DNA of 7,277 bases, from positions 1-7,277 of the IMG/VR virus record IMGVR_UViG_2778261154_000009, one strand, 5' to 3'. The notes beneath the pieces were generated by a model. It saw nothing but the letters and a program-made list of their open reading frames with translations, was not told the DNA's origin and did no database searches. Below, piece by piece: positions 1-7,277 of this stretch (its first letter is position 1; the number at the start of each line of letters is the position of its first letter). The translations under genes were made by a program, and so were the position numbers. Source of the stretch: a virus (Duplodnaviria; Heunggongvirae; Uroviricota; Caudoviricetes).

Positions 1-161
1 CATCTCAGTAATACGGGAATACATTGAGATTTTCTACAATCGTCAGCGTCGTCACTCTCGTCTGGGGAATATCTCCCCGGCAGCCTTCAGGGAAAAATAT
101 CATCAGATGGCTGCTTAAAAAAAGAACAAATGGTAGTGTCCGCTATTGCCAGTACACCTCA
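1..161 (+). mobile_element. IS3-family insertion sequence, 3' (right) end only; element continues upstream of the window
   Basis: Frame-2 ORF reads to a stop at 116-118. Downstream, the reverse complement of 131-161 reads TGAGGTGTACTGGCAATAGCGGACACTACC, which has the TGA start and GGACAC core I associate with IS3-family terminal inverted repeats. Right boundary (about 161) is from memory and approximate. Confidence 0.6.
2..118 (+). CDS. IS3-family transposase OrfB, C-terminal 38 codons (5' partial)
   Basis: Translation of 2-118 gives ISVIREYIEIFYNRQRRHSRLGNISPAAFREKYHQMAA then stop. The FYNxxRxHSxLGxxSP motif is the characteristic C-terminus of IS3-family DDE transposases. Exact IS species not assigned. 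Confidence 0.8.
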   Translation: MSVIREYIEIFYNRQRRHSRLGNISPAAFREKYHQMAA

Positions 162-214
162 CCGTTAGCGGCTGCGTCACTCAGTTTAAAATAAGCATAT
201 GCTTTCATATTCAT
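162..214 (-). pseudogene. 5' stub of a prophage ORF downstream of gam, apparently truncated by the IS3-family insertion
   Basis: Minus-strand AGAGGAAATGAATATG (strong SD, ATG at 214-212 or 208-206) opens a frame encoding MNMKAYAYFKLSDAAANG that runs into the putative IS inverted repeat and stops at 145-143. Inference only. Confidence 0.3.
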
Positions 215-305
215 TTCCTCTGGTCCTGATTCAGGCGCGAGCAATCCCCTGACGCATCGCGCCATAATTAAAAGAAAGTGAATTAATTAAATATTCGTCG
301 TGGTA

Positions 306-830
306 TTAAATACCGGCATCCTGTTCAAACGGAATAATAGAAAAATCTTCAATGCCTGATTTAACTGTAATTCCGGCGACACCTGCGACTGCTTTCGGCT
401 CCAGTAAAATCGCTTCCTTGTTGATTTCCTGTTTCGTGCGAATAAAGCGTTGAAGGCCAAGACGCTCCAGTGTTTCCATCACCGCATCCACACCGCGAAT
501 ACTTACTGATGGTGGGCGCTGACGCCATGACACATCACCGGTTACCAGGTTTGCCGTCTTCACCTTGCCGCCGTTCGTCAGTTCGTCACGGTTCGCTTCA
601 CACCATCCCTGAACGCCTTTTGAAAGGGTTTCGATACTGGTTTTAAGCGGTGCAATCTGTGAGGCGTATTTCTCCGTAATCTCAGCGATAGCGTCATTCA
701 TTTCCGTTTCAAGTCGTGCTGCTTCGCGTTGCAGGTCCCCAATCCGGCGGATATCACATACCACGGCATCGCGGGATTGCGGAACATAAGCCGCTGCGGC
801 GTTCCTGATTCGTTTTGCGGGTTTAGCCAT
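306..830 (-). CDS. gam: Host-nuclease inhibitor Gam (Mu Gam / Ku-like DNA end-binding protein), 174 aa
   Basis: Full ORF with SD AGGAG 9-10 nt upstream of the ATG at 830-828. Sequence (MAKPAKRIRNAAAAYVPQSRDAV...GIEDFSIIPFEQDAGI) and length match Mu-family Gam as I recall it. Confidence 0.9.
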   Translation of the reverse strand: MAKPAKRIRNAAAAYVPQSRDAVVCDIRRIGDLQREAARLETEMNDAIAEITEKYASQIAPLKTSIETLSKGVQGWCEANRDELTNGGKVKTANLVTGDVSWRQRPPSVSIRGVDAVMETLERLGLQRFIRTKQEINKEAILLEPKAVAGVAGITVKSGIEDFSIIPFEQDAGI

Positions 831-848
831 AAATAAAGCTCCTGTTAA

Positions 849-1136
849 TTAATATTCACTGTATACAATGCCGGATACAGCACGATTGCTTAATTCCATC
901 TTTTGGGCTATCACATGAATAGCCAGCCCTTCTTTATAAAGTTCACGGCATAAATATTTGTCGTGCTCACTGACCTGGTATGCACACAACGATATTCCGT
1001 GCCTTCTGGCATGTGCCTGTAGGGCGGTTGGGGCAACTTTCAGTTTTTTCGCCATTTCCTCGACGGTCATTTTTCCGACACTGGCTTCGATAAATTCCCG
1101 GTCTTCGCGTGACCAGCGTTTACGATTACACGTCAT
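849..1136 (-). CDS. Hypothetical early protein, 95 aa from ATG 1136 (99 aa if GTG 1148), putative HTH DNA-binding
   Basis: ORF in operon orientation. N-terminal segment WSREDREFIEASVGKMTVEEMAKKLKVAPTALQAHARRHGIS has an HTH-like pattern. The upstream gene's TGA (1151-1149) abuts this start. No family assigned. Confidence 0.6.
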   Translation of the reverse strand: MTCNRKRWSREDREFIEASVGKMTVEEMAKKLKVAPTALQAHARRHGISLCAYQVSEHDKYLCRELYKEGLAIHVIAQKMELSNRAVSGIVYSEY

Positions 1137-1148
1137 TCCGGTCACCAC

Positions 1149-1568
1149 TCAGTACAACAGAGGCTCGCGCAGTGATGCCGGAATATGCCGCAGCGATAAC
1201 TGAACCGCTTTCAGGACAAGCGAGGAATAACAGCAGCGCGCCCAGCCTTTTGCCATTAACCGGTAATCGCGCCAGATACGCTGCCACATTTCACGGGCTT
1301 TCGGGTCTGACGCGCAGATGTATTCGCGGTCCATGACGTATTCCCATAAATCCACATTGAAGGCATTGCCAAACGTAATGGCGCGGAATACCGCCTCTCC
1401 GCAATAACGCGCACAAATGCTGTAATGGTCAAATGCAATCAGGTAAGTCTTTTCGCCATACCCCTCAACTTCGCGCGCACAAATAAATTCGCGCAAGTCT
1501 CCACCATTGTTATTACGCTCTTTAATCCGAATTAATGCCCGGATTTCATTTCGGATTTTGACGTTCAT
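1149..1568 (-). CDS. Hypothetical early protein, 139 aa, Cys/His-containing
   Basis: ORF with SD AAGGAA 9 nt upstream of the ATG at 1568-1566; the longer track ORF starting at 1592 lacks an SD. Contains HYSICARYC (H-x3-C-x3-C) plus further Cys residues. No recognisable family. Confidence 0.6.
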   Translation of the reverse strand: MNVKIRNEIRALIRIKERNNNGGDLREFICAREVEGYGEKTYLIAFDHYSICARYCGEAVFRAITFGNAFNVDLWEYVMDREYICASDPKAREMWQRIWRDYRLMAKGWARCCYSSLVLKAVQLSLRHIPASLREPLLY

Positions 1569-1582
1569 TGTCAGCGTTCCTT

Positions 1583-1846
1583 TCAGTGGCATGTTTTTTC
1601 AACAGCCATTTCAGTGACACGGCCACCGGTGATGACACTATCGTTTTTCAAAATCTCGATAGCTTCATGGGCTGACTCATTAATTATTTTCTGGCTTTTA
1701 TTAAGCACCAGTAACGCCACCATGCCAGCAAGTGTACCCTCATCACCGTCCAGTTCCGCACTACCGTCCACCGCAATGCTGGTGCGCAAATTCAGTCCTT
1801 TAATTCCAGATACTGTATTTTTAATTTCAATAATTACTTTTGCCAT
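1583..1846 (-). CDS. Hypothetical early protein, 87 aa, acidic
   Basis: SD GAGGAA 8 nt upstream of the ATG at 1846-1844; the track ORF begins at an upstream GTG (1861) without an SD. Stop overlaps the next gene start by 10 bp if 1592 is used, consistent with operon packing. Confidence 0.6.
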   Translation of the reverse strand: MAKVIIEIKNTVSGIKGLNLRTSIAVDGSAELDGDEGTLAGMVALLVLNKSQKIINESAHEAIEILKNDSVITGGRVTEMAVEKTCH

Positions 1847-1878
1847 TTTGTTATTCCTCACAAATAAATAAGCCGTTA

Positions 1879-2106
1879 TTAACGCCAGATAATCTGGCAG
1901 CCATTAAGGCGGGCCGTCCATACTGAACGGGCAACCCCTGATTTATGCTCCATAATCCTGACAGCGTTTCTGACCAGCTCCGGTGGTGGGCAGGTGATTT
2001 CAAGTACCGGACGCGCCACGCCGAGATATGATTCATTTACGTGACTCCCGTGCGCCTGTAACCAGTTCTGCGCATCCGTTGCCATTTTTATATTTCGTGA
2101 CATCAT
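1879..2106 (-). CDS. Small early protein in the position of Mu kil (immediately downstream of B), 75 aa
   Basis: SD AAGGA 9 nt upstream of ATG 2106-2104, 16 nt after the B stop. Kil assignment is positional only; I cannot verify sequence similarity, so no symbol is given. Confidence 0.6.
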
Positions 2107-2121
2107 GGTTTATGTCCTTTA

Positions 2122-3072
2122 CTACCAGTTCAGTAACCTGGGGTTGCTGTAAGCCTCCTTAAAAGCCGCTTTAATGTGACTTTTATTCAGGGATGTGCCT
2201 GCACCTTTTGCCGCCAGCCACGCATGATTCAGTGTGTGAGTTAATACACGCAATCCCCCGGGCTTTTCGGCTACCCTCATCAGCAGGTCCAGCTCATCTT
2301 CCTGTGTTACTCCCCATGCTTTGGCTACAGCCATCACATCGGTCTTTTTTACTTTGCGCAGTTGTTTTGTCATGGCAAAACGGCTGAACAGACGGGCCAG
2401 TTCATCAGTCCCACGACGGGTGGCATCCGCCATCTGTTTCGGGTTGCCAATTAAAACCATCCCCACGCCAGTGGCATCCTGAATGGCGCGTAATTGCTCC
2501 AGACCATCCACACTTAAGTGATCAGCTTCATCAATAATCAGAAGGGGGTTAACACGGCCACTGGTTTCTTTACCACCACCCAGTTTTCTGCGAATGGCGC
2601 GGGTTATATTCCCCTTATTTCTTCCCGGATTATTAATTTCCAGCGCATATGCTATTTCAAGGAGGCATTCCGTTACGCTCGAATGTGCCGGAGCAAGAGT
2701 CACCATCCAGGCATTAGCTGTCCTGCGACAATATTCCCGGGCAGCAAAGGTTTTTCCGACACCCGGTACGCCAACAACAACACTGATAATCCCGAGTGAG
2801 CGCACTGTTTTAAACAGTTCATGCAAATCACAAAATGTCTGGGTCTTCACAACGCCGGGGGTACCTGACAAATTCTGCCCTTTCTGCCAGACCCGATACC
2901 ATTCCTGTAATTTGTCATACATGCCTTCAACATTGCCTCTGTACTTTCCTTTACGAAGATCAGAAAGTGTTGCCGGAGACATTCCGGCTTCATCAGCAAT
3001 ATCTTCCTGAGACTTGTCGCCCTCGTTAATCAAAGCGTTAATAGTGTTGAAAACATCATCAATATCAGTCAT
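2122..3072 (-). CDS. B: Mu B-like transposition ATPase (target DNA activator), 316 aa
   Basis: Walker A GVPGVGKT and Walker B LLIIDEADHL; N-terminal HTH-like segment (DEAGMSPATLSDLRKGKY); SD GAGGAA 6-7 nt upstream of ATG 3072-3070; located directly downstream of the transposase gene. Confidence 0.9.
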   Translation of the reverse strand: MTDIDDVFNTINALINEGDKSQEDIADEAGMSPATLSDLRKGKYRGNVEGMYDKLQEWYRVWQKGQNLSGTPGVVKTQTFCDLHELFKTVRSLGIISVVVGVPGVGKTFAAREYCRRTANAWMVTLAPAHSSVTECLLEIAYALEINNPGRNKGNITRAIRRKLGGGKETSGRVNPLLIIDEADHLSVDGLEQLRAIQDATGVGMVLIGNPKQMADATRRGTDELARLFSRFAMTKQLRKVKKTDVMAVAKAWGVTQEDELDLLMRVAEKPGGLRVLTHTLNHAWLAAKGAGTSLNKSHIKAAFKEAYSNPRLLNW

Positions 3073-3116
3073 AGTATTTCCTCGGTTATTTCAAATCAGC
3101 TTTGTTTCCTTTATTT

Positions 3117-3145
3117 AACAGTCCGTTCCCGCGGACTGTTTTTTT
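3117..3145 (+). terminator. Intrinsic-terminator-like hairpin with T7 tract in the A-B spacer, oriented for plus-strand (antisense) transcription
   Basis: Perfect 9-bp stem AACAGTCCG (3117-3125) / CGGACTGTT (3132-3140), 6-nt loop, followed by a 7-T run (3139-3145). On the operon (minus) strand the hairpin is not followed by a U-tract. Confidence 0.35.
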
Positions 3146-3147
3146 AT

Positions 3148-5244
3148 TCAGGCCAGCGGATCATCTTCTTCCTGCATGGCAAAAAGTTTTTGCATCCCCA
3201 GCCGGAAATCGCGTTCAAATTCTTCGTCATGCTCTTCTTCATATTTCGGTTGCTGAACTGCCACCACATTACCAACCGGGCGATAAACATTACTCAGCCA
3301 GGGTTCAGCCTGTTTGTGTTCCAGAATCTGAATACCTTCATCTTCAGCATCACGAATTTTTTCCTCAGCGCGTTTGCGCATTCCTTTAATACGCTGCTGT
3401 TGTTTGTGATATTCAGCACTGACAGCAAAGGCTGCGCGTTTATTGCCGTTCCATATCGCCTCACAGATAAAGCTGCCGTCCTTGCGACGTACCGTAATTC
3501 GCTCGGCGTCATGAATGTCATAACTGATAAGCACTTTGCGACCGTGTTCGTCACGCAACTCCGGCGCGTAGTAAATATTGTTCAGCCACTGAATTTCGCA
3601 GCGTCTTACCGGTCGTTCCACCATTGGGCGGAACATGTCGCGCAGCTCAAGATCACTCAGCCACTCAATTTCGGTGTCTTCTTCTGCCAGGCGTTTTTTT
3701 CTGAACTCTGTCGGGCTGTAATGCCGTCCGTTCGGTTTCATCGGCAGCTCAGAATGCGGGCGGTTGTTGTACCATTCCACGCCTTCACGAATAGCCTCAA
3801 TAAGCTCCGCCCACGATGGCAGCTCGCGCATTGCCGCTTTCTGGCGGTCGTTCAGAGGCTTGTCCTGTTGCAGGGCGTTAAACGCTGAACGCAGATCACG
3901 GTTAAGTACACGCAACGATTCCCGGTCAGCACCCTTGCCAAAATAGGTGCGATACCTCCTGGCTATACGCATCGGCAGTGTCCGGTTCAGGCGTTCAATA
4001 ATGCCGCGTCCCTGTGGATTACCGGCAATACCGGTAGGGTGTTTAATCCCCAGGCGTGGCAGAATACCCACGACCTCTTTGTCCAGCATGTCAGCCGTTT
4101 CACCGGAACCGTTATCCGAGTAATACAGGAACGGTTTTCCGTGGTTGCGAATGCCGTGCTGTATCGCACCGGCAACGGCGAACACGTTTTCGGCAAGGTC
4201 AAGACTCCAGCCAACAACAAACCGTGTTCCACCATCGATCACAAACGTGACTTCCGGTGAGAATGGACGCCCGTGGATCGGATGCGCACATTTCAGCTTC
4301 ATACCGTGACCGTCACCAATCCAGACATAATTCACCGGCATAGCTGTCCAGTCGCGGCGGGTGAATCCTTCAAGCTGACGGTATTCACTGCCGGTAACGC
4401 GCCCTTTTTGTTTCACCACTTCCGGCAGTTTTTTCATGGCATACCGGACAACATCATAGGAAGGCATCACCTCCAGCATGTACGGTTCGTCCGCATGGCG
4501 ACGCTGCCATTCTGCGACAAAATCCTCGTAGGCTTCTGACATGGGTCTGCCGTTCACCTGGCGATACTGCGCCAGAAATTCAGGCAGCCAGCTGATTTCT
4601 TCCGGTTTTATTTCGTCGCGTTTTCCCGGTGCCAGTAACAGCAGCCGTTCGGCGGCGTTCTGCGACTGGTTGTATTTCAGAACCCACTGGTAAAGTGGAT
4701 CGCGGCTGATAGTACGATTAGCGCCACGTTTTGCATTGGCGTTAACTGCGGCCTGTTGCAGGCGCTCCGGCAGCTCACCTTTACGGGCTTTTTCAACAAG
4801 AAAGTTAATGGCTTTCAGTCGCCCGAGGTTACCGGCGCTTTCCAGCTTCAGCACTTCCACCACCAGCGCAGCTCTTGCTTCAGATACCCGGCGCTGGTTT
4901 TCGGTCAGCGCATTCAGGCGTTCTTCCATCAGTTGTGGAGAACCGCGATATGCTTCGATTGCCTGGACAGCGTCAGGATTGCGTGTTTTTCTGGTAACAG
5001 CTTTCACTTCAGAAACATTGTTCTCTGTAGCCACCAGCTGTTCCACATAGCGTTCACGCAGTGCCTTTCGTGTTATTTCAGGCAGACAATCAATGTGGTA
5101 CTCAATGGCTTTTGTGCCTTCCCGACGGCGACTAACGTCACCAAGATCACGAGAAAAACGCTGTAACGCCTGTCGGATGCCTTTTGTGGTGGCTGGCATT
5201 CCTGGTACGCCGAGCAGGTCATTTACGGTAACGTACGACTGCAT
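3148..5244 (-). CDS. A: Mu A-like DDE transposase, 698 aa from ATG 5244
   Basis: N-terminus (LLGVPGMPATTKGIRQ...GTKAIEYHIDCLPEITRKAL) resembles the MuA enhancer-binding winged-helix domain. DDE core candidates WIGDGHG, YYSDNGSG and GIIERLNR. Start at 5244 chosen for SD AGGAAGG; the 721-aa track ORF start at 5313 has no SD and overlaps ner. Confidence 0.9.
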   Translation of the reverse strand: MQSYVTVNDLLGVPGMPATTKGIRQALQRFSRDLGDVSRRREGTKAIEYHIDCLPEITRKALRERYVEQLVATENNVSEVKAVTRKTRNPDAVQAIEAYRGSPQLMEERLNALTENQRRVSEARAALVVEVLKLESAGNLGRLKAINFLVEKARKGELPERLQQAAVNANAKRGANRTISRDPLYQWVLKYNQSQNAAERLLLLAPGKRDEIKPEEISWLPEFLAQYRQVNGRPMSEAYEDFVAEWQRRHADEPYMLEVMPSYDVVRYAMKKLPEVVKQKGRVTGSEYRQLEGFTRRDWTAMPVNYVWIGDGHGMKLKCAHPIHGRPFSPEVTFVIDGGTRFVVGWSLDLAENVFAVAGAIQHGIRNHGKPFLYYSDNGSGETADMLDKEVVGILPRLGIKHPTGIAGNPQGRGIIERLNRTLPMRIARRYRTYFGKGADRESLRVLNRDLRSAFNALQQDKPLNDRQKAAMRELPSWAELIEAIREGVEWYNNRPHSELPMKPNGRHYSPTEFRKKRLAEEDTEIEWLSDLELRDMFRPMVERPVRRCEIQWLNNIYYAPELRDEHGRKVLISYDIHDAERITVRRKDGSFICEAIWNGNKRAAFAVSAEYHKQQQRIKGMRKRAEEKIRDAEDEGIQILEHKQAEPWLSNVYRPVGNVVAVQQPKYEEEHDEEFERDFRLGMQKLFAMQEEDDPLA

Positions 5245-5245
5245 A

Positions 5246-5497
5246 TCACGACACCTTCCTGATAAATCCATCGTTACGATACCGGCTGGGCCAGATGATT
5301 TCTGGCGGTACACCTATAGCGTCAGAAATTACGCGTTCGTATTTTTTGTTTGGTGTGCGAACTACCGCTTTCAGTGAATCCTGAGCATAACCAGCATGGA
5401 GTGAAAGCTCCCGGAAGGAAGACCACCCGTTATCTTTGAGCGCCAGCTGAATCTTCAGCGAAGGCCAATCGCGGTCACTATCTTCTCTTTGTCTCAT
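5246..5497 (-). CDS. ner: Ner-like DNA-binding protein (Mu Ner / Nlp family), 83 aa
   Basis: Contains the Ner/Nlp signature (DWPSLKIQLALKDNGWSSFRELS...PEIIWPSRY); SD AAGGAAAG before ATG 5497-5495; stop TGA is 1 nt from the A start (TGATATG). Confidence 0.85.
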   Translation of the reverse strand: MRQREDSDRDWPSLKIQLALKDNGWSSFRELSLHAGYAQDSLKAVVRTPNKKYERVISDAIGVPPEIIWPSRYRNDGFIRKVS

Positions 5498-5526
5498 CTT
5501 TCCTTTAACCTACAAAATTACCCGCG

Positions 5527-5548
5527 CGGATATCCGGTCGGATATCCG
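5527..5548. promoter_or_regulatory. Two tandem copies of the perfect 10-bp palindrome CGGATATCCG: candidate operator sites
   Basis: Exact copies at 5527-5536 and 5539-5548, 12 bp start-to-start, in the ner-repressor intergenic region just downstream of the candidate early promoter. Confidence 0.5.
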
Positions 5549-5557
5549 TATGGATAA

Positions 5558-5586
5558 AGATTAAGATACCAAAGATTCCTTGTAAA
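5558..5586 (-). promoter_or_regulatory. Candidate early promoter (Pe-like) for ner-A-B
   Basis: Minus-strand TTTACA (5586-5581), 17-bp spacer, TAATCT (5563-5558). Predicted start lies just upstream of the palindromes. Sequence-pattern call only. Confidence 0.35.
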
Positions 5587-5629
5587 GGGTTCTTTGGTGT
5601 TTTTATGGTTTATTTTTTAATTTCATTAT

Positions 5630-5642
5630 TTATCAATGAATT
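5630..5642. promoter_or_regulatory. IHF consensus match (WATCAANNNNTTR)
   Basis: TATCAATGAATTA at 5630-5642, preceded by an A/T-rich tract, between the divergent repressor and ner starts. Mu has an IHF site in its operator region. Confidence 0.4.
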
Positions 5643-5661
5643 AGATAGAAAGGAACCAAGA

Positions 5662-6225
5662 ATGAGAAAAGCACCCCAAGGTTCTTTTCCTGCCGATGGA
5701 AAAGAACCGATTATCGAAAGAATCTTTAGGTTAGTAGAACGATACCCTTCAAGAAATGCGGCTGCTCGGGCATGGGGGATCAATGAAGGCACTTTAAAAA
5801 ATTATTACAACAGGCGGGATTACGCACCGATACCACGCCCGCATCAGTTAAAAAAGATAGCAGAAAGCGAAAATGTTACCTTGGAATGGCTCATGACGGG
5901 AGAGGGTGATGTTGAACTAAAAGATTCCAAAGAACCCAAAAAAGAGAATGCGGATAATGTTGATGCTCAAATTCTAATGTTCTTGTCATTTCTTAAACCA
6001 CAAGAAAAACAACAAGTAGCTGATGTTCTTGGGAGAAAAGGAGCGGAGCAATTACTCATTCTTCTGGATGAGCACATCCAAGAGTTGCACGCTCTAGTTG
6101 GAGTTCGTAGAGCCATAGCGTTAAGCCTTGGTAATTTGCCAGACGAAAAGGTTAGAGAGATTTACGCGTTGTCCGAAGCTAAGGGCGATCACTTAAATCT
6201 ACCTCAGAAAGCAGCCAGCGCATAA
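5662..6225 (+). CDS. c: Prophage repressor (c-like): XRE-type HTH N-terminus with a Mu-repressor-like C-terminal region, 187 aa
   Basis: SD AAAGGAA 8-9 nt upstream of ATG 5662; the track ORF start at 5605 lacks an SD. N-terminus has an XRE/Cro-CI HTH pattern (SRNAAARAWGINEGTLKNYY...LEWLMTGEG). C-terminal segment resembles the Mu Repc C-terminal region as I recall it. Divergent from ner, in the Mu c position. Confidence 0.7.
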   Translation: MRKAPQGSFPADGKEPIIERIFRLVERYPSRNAAARAWGINEGTLKNYYNRRDYAPIPRPHQLKKIAESENVTLEWLMTGEGDVELKDSKEPKKENADNVDAQILMFLSFLKPQEKQQVADVLGRKGAEQLLILLDEHIQELHALVGVRRAIALSLGNLPDEKVREIYALSEAKGDHLNLPQKAASA

Positions 6226-6348
6226 CCCAGTGCAAGTGCCTAGCTGTGCTAAAATTACATTGGTTTTGGCGCTTGCACCCATCAGCGCTATAATAAACAC
6301 CTGAATCGTTTTTGAACGGTCTTTAAAGGCTATTGTAAGAACCTGTGA

Positions 6349-6483
6349 GTTATCTTGAATGTTTTATTGATATCGAACCGTTTAACATTTTTGGACTCGC
6401 TTTATCTTGAAAACCTTGAGTTCCTAACTTGTTGATTCCAATCTATTCCCGTCTTTTTTAATCTCTTCCCGGTTATCTTGAAT
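6349..6483. repeat. Three direct repeats of TTATCTTGAA in the prophage terminal non-coding region: candidate transposase end-binding sites (attL L1-L3-like)
   Basis: Core TTATCTTGAA at 6350-6359, 6402-6411 and 6473-6482; the outer two copies are identical over 12 bp (GTTATCTTGAAT). Read inward, each contains TTCAAGATAA, which carries the TTCA element of the Mu end-site consensus. Confidence 0.5.
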
Positions 6484-6500
6484 AAATTACCTAGTCATAA

Positions 6501-7118
<618 letters not shown>

Positions 7119-7188: not shown

Positions 7189-7277
7189 GGTGATGCTGCC
7201 AACTTACTGATTTAGTGTATGATGGTGTTTTTGAGGTGCTCCAGTGGCTTCTGTTTCTATCAGCTGTCCCTCCTGTT
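7189..7277 (+). mobile_element. IS1 left end (terminal inverted repeat plus start of insA), element continues beyond the window
   Basis: GGTGATGCTGCCAACTTACTGAT terminal repeat at 7189-7211, followed by sequence matching the IS1 5' region as I recall it. Confidence 0.9.
7244..7277 (+). CDS. insA: IS1 InsA, 5' partial (first 11 codons, GTG start)
   Basis: GTG GCT TCT GTT TCT ATC AGC TGT CCC TCC TGT encodes MASVSISCPSC, the InsA N-terminus. Confidence 0.8.
   Translation, partial: MASVSISCPSC

Follow-up and report, generated by a model that had tools for sequence, protein, structure and literature searches.

IS600 insertion interrupts the gene that follows gam in a Mu-like prophage

The X mutants of phage Mu, ascribed to work by Bukhari in 1975, are reportedly Mu prophages in which IS1 has entered gene B, in the early region. 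The locus described here resembles them in that an insertion sequence lies in a Mu-type early operon, where it would be expected to be polar on the distal early functions and to leave the prophage non-lytic. It differs from them in that the element is IS600, in that A, B, kil and gam all precede it, and in that the case is known from sequence alone. According to Hawkey et al. (2020, PMC7373316), five insertion sequences, namely IS1, IS2, IS4, IS600 and IS911, have expanded in enteroinvasive E. coli and Shigella. The element and the simple-insertion signature found here are the same as in the IS600 pseudogenes of those bacteria, but the target is a prophage early gene and not a host metabolic gene, and the insertion site was found in two contigs of one lineage only. 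SfMu-like prophage remnants are common in Shigella flexneri (Jakhetia and Verma 2015, PMC4406740). As in that species, Mu-like prophage DNA is here carried by an IS-rich enteric genome, with the gam-kil region 88-96% identical to SfMu; unlike those remnants, the prophage is interrupted and not a remnant within the part read, and its transposition/immunity module and left end are unlike those of SfMu. The insertion is of an ordinary, already known kind, routine in IS-rich E. coli/Shigella lineages.

The stretch of DNA analysed, hereafter the window, is the entire short-read contig NJNE01000126.1 (7277 bp) of assembly GCA_002467185.1. It holds the left, early part of a Mu-like prophage in minus-strand orientation and is bounded by multicopy insertion sequences, IS600 at its left end and IS1 at its right end. 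These ends are unresolved repeats, not biological boundaries, and the far side of IS600 is invisible in the window because the assembler ended the short-read contig inside the repeat. The features of the window are the following.

1-161, plus strand: right end of IS600 (IS positions 1104-1264 of 1264), with 0 mismatches to a complete annotated copy
2-118, plus strand: last 38 codons of IS600 OrfB (part of the rve-type DDE transposase), with the stop at 116-118, from translation
133-161, no strand assigned: IS600 right terminal inverted repeat, read inward TGAGGTGTACTGGCAATAGCGGACACTAC, imperfect with respect to the left repeat in the IRL/IRR alignment
143-208, minus strand: chimeric ORF of 21 codons, in which 16 residues come from the prophage, while EVYWQ and the TAG stop after it are supplied by the IS600 inverted repeat
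162-164, no strand assigned: one copy of the target-site duplication CCG, the second copy lying just before the IS600 left end
162-208, minus strand: 5' stub of an early gene (SfMu gp11 homologue), 15 codons plus 2 nt, MKAYAYFKLSDAAAN(G)
209-305, minus strand: spacer between gam and the next gene, conserved in intact relatives
216-220, minus strand: Shine-Dalgarno sequence GAGGA, 7 nt from the ATG at 208 and 1 nt from the ATG at 214
306-830, minus strand: gam, host-nuclease inhibitor, intact, 174 aa, with a Gam annotation in relatives
1879-2106, minus strand: kil
2122-3072, minus strand: B
3148-5244, minus strand: transposase A, 698 aa
5246-5497, minus strand: ner
5662-6225, plus strand: repressor
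6499-7118: host gene astE (succinylglutamate desuccinylase), inside which the prophage is inserted, with host DNA back from 6500

The order of the early region, with repressor, ner, A (Mu-type transposase), B (AAA+ ATPase), kil and gam, is that of a Mu-like phage, and the Pfam matches along the contig were, in order, PF13693, PF09299/PF02316, PF09077, PF26843 and PF07352. The last of these was given by Gam, a protein whose exact sequence was present on contigs in 227 blocks of the searched collection. The astE frame stays open between 6501 and 7118, and its called C-terminal fragment has 183 aa. In many assemblies free of the insertion, astE is also called as two genes of about 134 and 183 aa (L017, L019, L022, L025 and L026, about 9584-10552), and these two-gene calls suggest that the gene is a pseudogene by point mutation or frameshift in those strains. 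The first 89 bp of IS1 form the right end of the window (7189-7277); in the long-read assembly described below, the same IS1 is complete (768 bp) and lies in the astE-spy intergenic region, with a 9-bp duplication (TAATCCTGG).

An IS3-family element had been predicted to abut the prophage at the other end of the window. Comparison of positions 1 to 161 with annotated copies identified it as IS600, since all 161 bp were identical to a copy named 'IS3-like element IS600 family transposase' by PGAP. The C-terminus of OrfB was read in frame 2 (...EYIEIFYNRQRRHSRLGNISPAAFREKYHQMAA), and the gene caller returned a 38-aa product with a weak rve_2 match on the contig. The inverted repeats of IS600 are imperfect (IRL TGAGGTAGCC..., IRR TGAGGTGTAC...), and the element has 5'-TG...CA-3' termini. 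The four independent complete IS600 copies that were compared all finish in ...CAGTACACCTCA, each being followed by its own 3-bp target duplication (GCG, CGC, TCC and CCA). Because these copies share the same terminus, the boundary of the element was set at window position 161 (...CACCTCA), in agreement with the end near 161 expected from the earlier inspection of the letters. IS600-like sequence was present in 2910 of 5426 complete E. coli genomes.

The full element at the present site was available in L021, where it measures 1264 bp and shows 99.84% identity to IS600 over 1264 bp. It encodes an OrfA of 100 aa (PF01527, HTH) and an OrfB of 272 aa (PF00665/rve, DDE), and because both are full length, this copy of IS600 is probably still active. 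Equivalent copies carry a 'programmed frameshift' annotation, consistent with a putative -1 frameshift between orfA and orfB. The IS600 transposase reads in the direction opposite to the prophage early operon.

On the prophage side, BLAST matches to intact Mu-like prophages and to SfMu begin at window position 161 rather than 162 because the final A of IS600 matches by chance; the true IS600/prophage junction is 161|162. The DNA from 162 to 305, for which a comparison with intact relatives had been proposed, is prophage DNA: an intact prophage in E. coli FDAARGOS_943 shares 99.7% identity with it, and phage SfMu 93.5%. The gap between gam and IS600 measures 144 bp (the gam stop lies at 306 on the minus strand), very close to the 145 bp or so of the original prediction. 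A GC-rich hairpin (stem GGCGCGA...UCGCGCC in the fold) is located at 232-262 on the minus strand, within the spacer that separates gam from the gene after it, and no T tract follows it in the sequence.

The IS600/gam junction was absent from the 5426 complete E. coli genomes, in which the best coverage begins at base 161, and an exact-match scan for it returned nothing in the genome contig collection with one genome per species. The protein look-up held no record of the 40-aa junction ORF, and look-ups by the Gam and Kil proteins led only to intact prophages or unrelated remnants, with no IS600/gam junction locus among them.

The gene that follows gam had been predicted to be cut by the element, and the stub next to IS600 was indeed found to be the N-terminus of a protein of intact relatives, with exactly the residues that open the 182-aa product in L001, an intact prophage. 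Depending on the start taken, the gene located 3' of gam in intact relatives encodes 182 aa (PGAP, equivalent to 208) or 184 aa (SfMu annotation, equivalent to 214). Once restored, the protein has exactly the sequence of WP_000649298.1, a RefSeq 'DUF5420 family protein'. It has 0 matches in current Pfam and NCBIfam libraries and matches phrog_2260, of unknown function, with E=6e-56. Regarding the start codon, the minus-strand ORF with a Shine-Dalgarno sequence running into the IS is real, but its proposed start at 214 was not maintained: the ATG at 208 is more likely, because of the spacing of GAGGA (7 nt vs 1 nt) and because this is also the PGAP start in relatives. Translation from 208 gives MKAYAYFKLSDAAANG-EVYWQ as the product of the chimeric ORF. 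Its stop after 21-23 codons (from 208 or 214) would fit a complete small gene next to which IS600 had entered intergenic DNA. However, the stop and the last five codons are IS600 inverted repeat, and residues 1-16 are the same as those that begin the conserved 182-aa protein matched by phrog_2260; on these two grounds a complete small gene was rejected, and we consider it hardly credible. What the insertion did was to knock out the 182-aa protein, leaving the 21-codon stub and a 5'-truncated remainder of the gene.

The remainder of the gene was found on another contig of the same assembly. NJNE01000068.1 (25,084 bp) opens with IS600 positions 1-536 and passes from the element via ...CGTATAACCG into the rest of the disrupted gene, after which Gp11_C, GemA, Mor, endolysin, terminase, portal and Mu F follow in this order. 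The reading of the far side covers about 10.5 kb of this 25-kb contig, as far as Mu F. Beyond IS600, the DNA is 99.9% identical to intact prophages over 2.3 kb in L021 and remains colinear with them (98.7-99.8% identity) over about 10 kb in L039. The complete arrangement can be read in UGFN01000003.1 (GCA_900450175.1, labelled E. coli), a long-read assembly from the same lineage, in the order astE', prophage early region, complete 1264-bp IS600 and rest of the prophage; it differs from the window by 0 substitutions and 16 single-base indels, mostly in short homopolymer runs. The search for prophage DNA past the IS, proposed together with the original prediction, was thus answered in both the short-read and the long-read assembly.

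The trinucleotide CCG is found on either side of IS600 in L021 and also precedes the IS600 left end in NJNE01000068.1, whereas intact relatives carry a single CCG. In silico removal of IS600 and one CCG restored the exact DNA and ORF of the intact prophage. These observations bear on the possibility that IS600 mediated an adjacent deletion or rearrangement, so that the IS would mark the edge of a truncated prophage whose remaining part was lost or moved. The window alone, which stops inside IS600, would allow this, and Mu-like remnants reduced by IS600 and IS1 are present in other genomes (L028, L031, L034 and L035). Such an event is nevertheless very improbable here: the matching left junction and the rest of the gene are in the same assembly, colinearity extends over at least 10.5 kb beyond the element, and the CCG duplication with exact restoration of the intact sequence is the signature of simple insertion. 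Deletion or rearrangement was rejected on the left junction, the duplication and the restoration. The prophage had been described in the original prediction as interrupted or partly deleted; the first term holds, and the second is contradicted by the far side, the CCG duplication and the colinear prophage.

A misjoin could also have placed an IS600 tail against prophage DNA at a contig end through repeat collapse, and it has to be noted that the window is a short-read contig with both ends in multicopy insertion sequences (IS600 and IS1). On the contrary, both junctions are present in the short-read assembly, the independent long-read assembly shows the identical junction with a complete IS600 and the target duplication, and the four contigs carrying the same transposase allele all fall in the 5-10 kb size class. 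An assembly artefact was rejected on the agreement of the long-read junction, and its chance is close to nil. The locus is a simple IS600 insertion: the prophage is interrupted and not deleted, rearranged or misassembled.

A second chimeric frame is found at the left junction, where a 176-aa 'DUF5420 family protein' has been recorded (STM77120.1 / WP_249546349.1; L021 1827-2357 and L039 511-1041). The corresponding 176-codon ORF has as its start a GTG within the left inverted repeat of IS600, from which it continues in frame into the truncated gene. This GTG is not preceded by a properly spaced Shine-Dalgarno sequence, and the IS::gene chimera held in public databases is probably an annotation artefact. 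Its product was found in 2 contigs only, in a collection of 15 billion proteins. Two contigs with the chimera and 0 complete E. coli genomes with the junction indicate that the insertion is specific to one lineage.

As a whole, the locus is best explained by the insertion of IS600 into a gene of a Mu-like prophage that was interrupted by it, a reading to which we assign a probability of about 0.96. A complete, probably active IS600 of 1264 bp transposed into the first gene downstream of gam, within codon 16, generating a 3-bp CCG target duplication of the usual size, and the prophage is otherwise colinear across the element, with at least 10.5 kb on the far side.

Such an insertion may have consequences for the genes located further downstream. 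Middle transcription, and after it late transcription, depends on the activator Mor. IS600 is inserted within the long early operon and points against its direction, with the early promoter region (by ner/A) on one side of it and the distal genes gemA and mor on the other. Because early transcripts would have to cross about 1.26 kb of untranslated antisense IS600 RNA, polarity on mor could well follow, and we put the odds of such an effect at roughly even. In Mu, the middle promoter has been described as requiring Mor, which is the product of an early gene (PMC4287176). The prophage may thus retain repressor, ner, transposase A/B, kil and gam and yet fail in lytic growth through a middle/late block. 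A consensus scan, with Rho-dependent polarity outside its scope, found 4 terminator-like sites in and around IS600 vs 3.1 expected by chance, and a consensus scan across the IS revealed no outward promoter. An internal promoter for mor, which would counter polarity, may exist.

A variant of this scheme is that the insertion uncouples gemA and mor from repressor-controlled early transcription, or that IS signals drive the 176-codon chimera and the downstream genes. We regard this variant as very unlikely, since nothing points to selection, the scan revealed no outward promoter, and the GTG of the chimera has no suitably placed Shine-Dalgarno sequence; if uncoupling were true, the prophage would still express A, B, kil and gam but would be unable to lyse its host.

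Apart from the insertion, the prophage itself departs from Mu in several respects. The same prophage family is found beside different host genes (L007-L016 and L027-L036), astE being the one used here, and this variety of host sites is Mu-like. The left end of the element (window 6420-6499) reads 5'-TATGACTAGG..., in comparison with TGTATTGATTCAC... in SfMu. This type of left end (TATGACTAGG or TATGACCAAG), with the terminus ...GTCATA, is common to nine independent insertions. In two complete relatives (L041 5126-39841 and L043 2205-36833), the element extends from 5'-TATGAC to GCTTTA-3', with TA...TA termini, and has 4-bp repeats on either side, TTTC in one relative, where an empty site confirmed it, and TTCA in the other. 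Repeats similar to TTATTCAAGATAA are present at both element ends. The TG...CA termini and the 5-bp target duplication of Mu were not found in these two relatives with the same end type. The TA...TA termini and 4-bp repeats therefore set the transposition module apart from that of Mu proper, leaving the IS600 finding unaffected. The non-Mu termini and the duplication size may merit a separate study.

Similarity to SfMu DNA is confined to window positions 161-2106 (gam to kil), SfMu and Mu both matching the gam region, and positions 2122-6499 are unlike SfMu; judged from these sequence comparisons, the prophage is a mosaic. Among the matches listed for the 698-aa transposase in phage records, the closest were Yersinia phages vB_YpM_5 and vB_YpM_6 (81%), Mu-like inserts in Stx phages reached 76%, and no Mu or SfMu record was among the 15 matches listed.

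A different remnant of the same prophage family is located near rpoS/mutS in several genomes of 4.5-4.6 Mb (again L028, L031, L034 and L035). In this remnant, a complete IS600 lies between A and B, and IS1 lies directly after kil and is followed by host genes (about 7790-9052 and 10286-10981). The presence of remnants cut by IS600 and IS1 in these genomes indicates that IS-driven decay of such prophages is recurrent. With regard to annotation, the value of the present result is that the prophage can be marked as interrupted and probably defective, that the contig end is explained, and that the chimera in the databases is flagged. For the biology of these bacteria, the locus adds one more case to the prophage decay that insertion sequences drive in E. 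coli/Shigella lineages rich in them.
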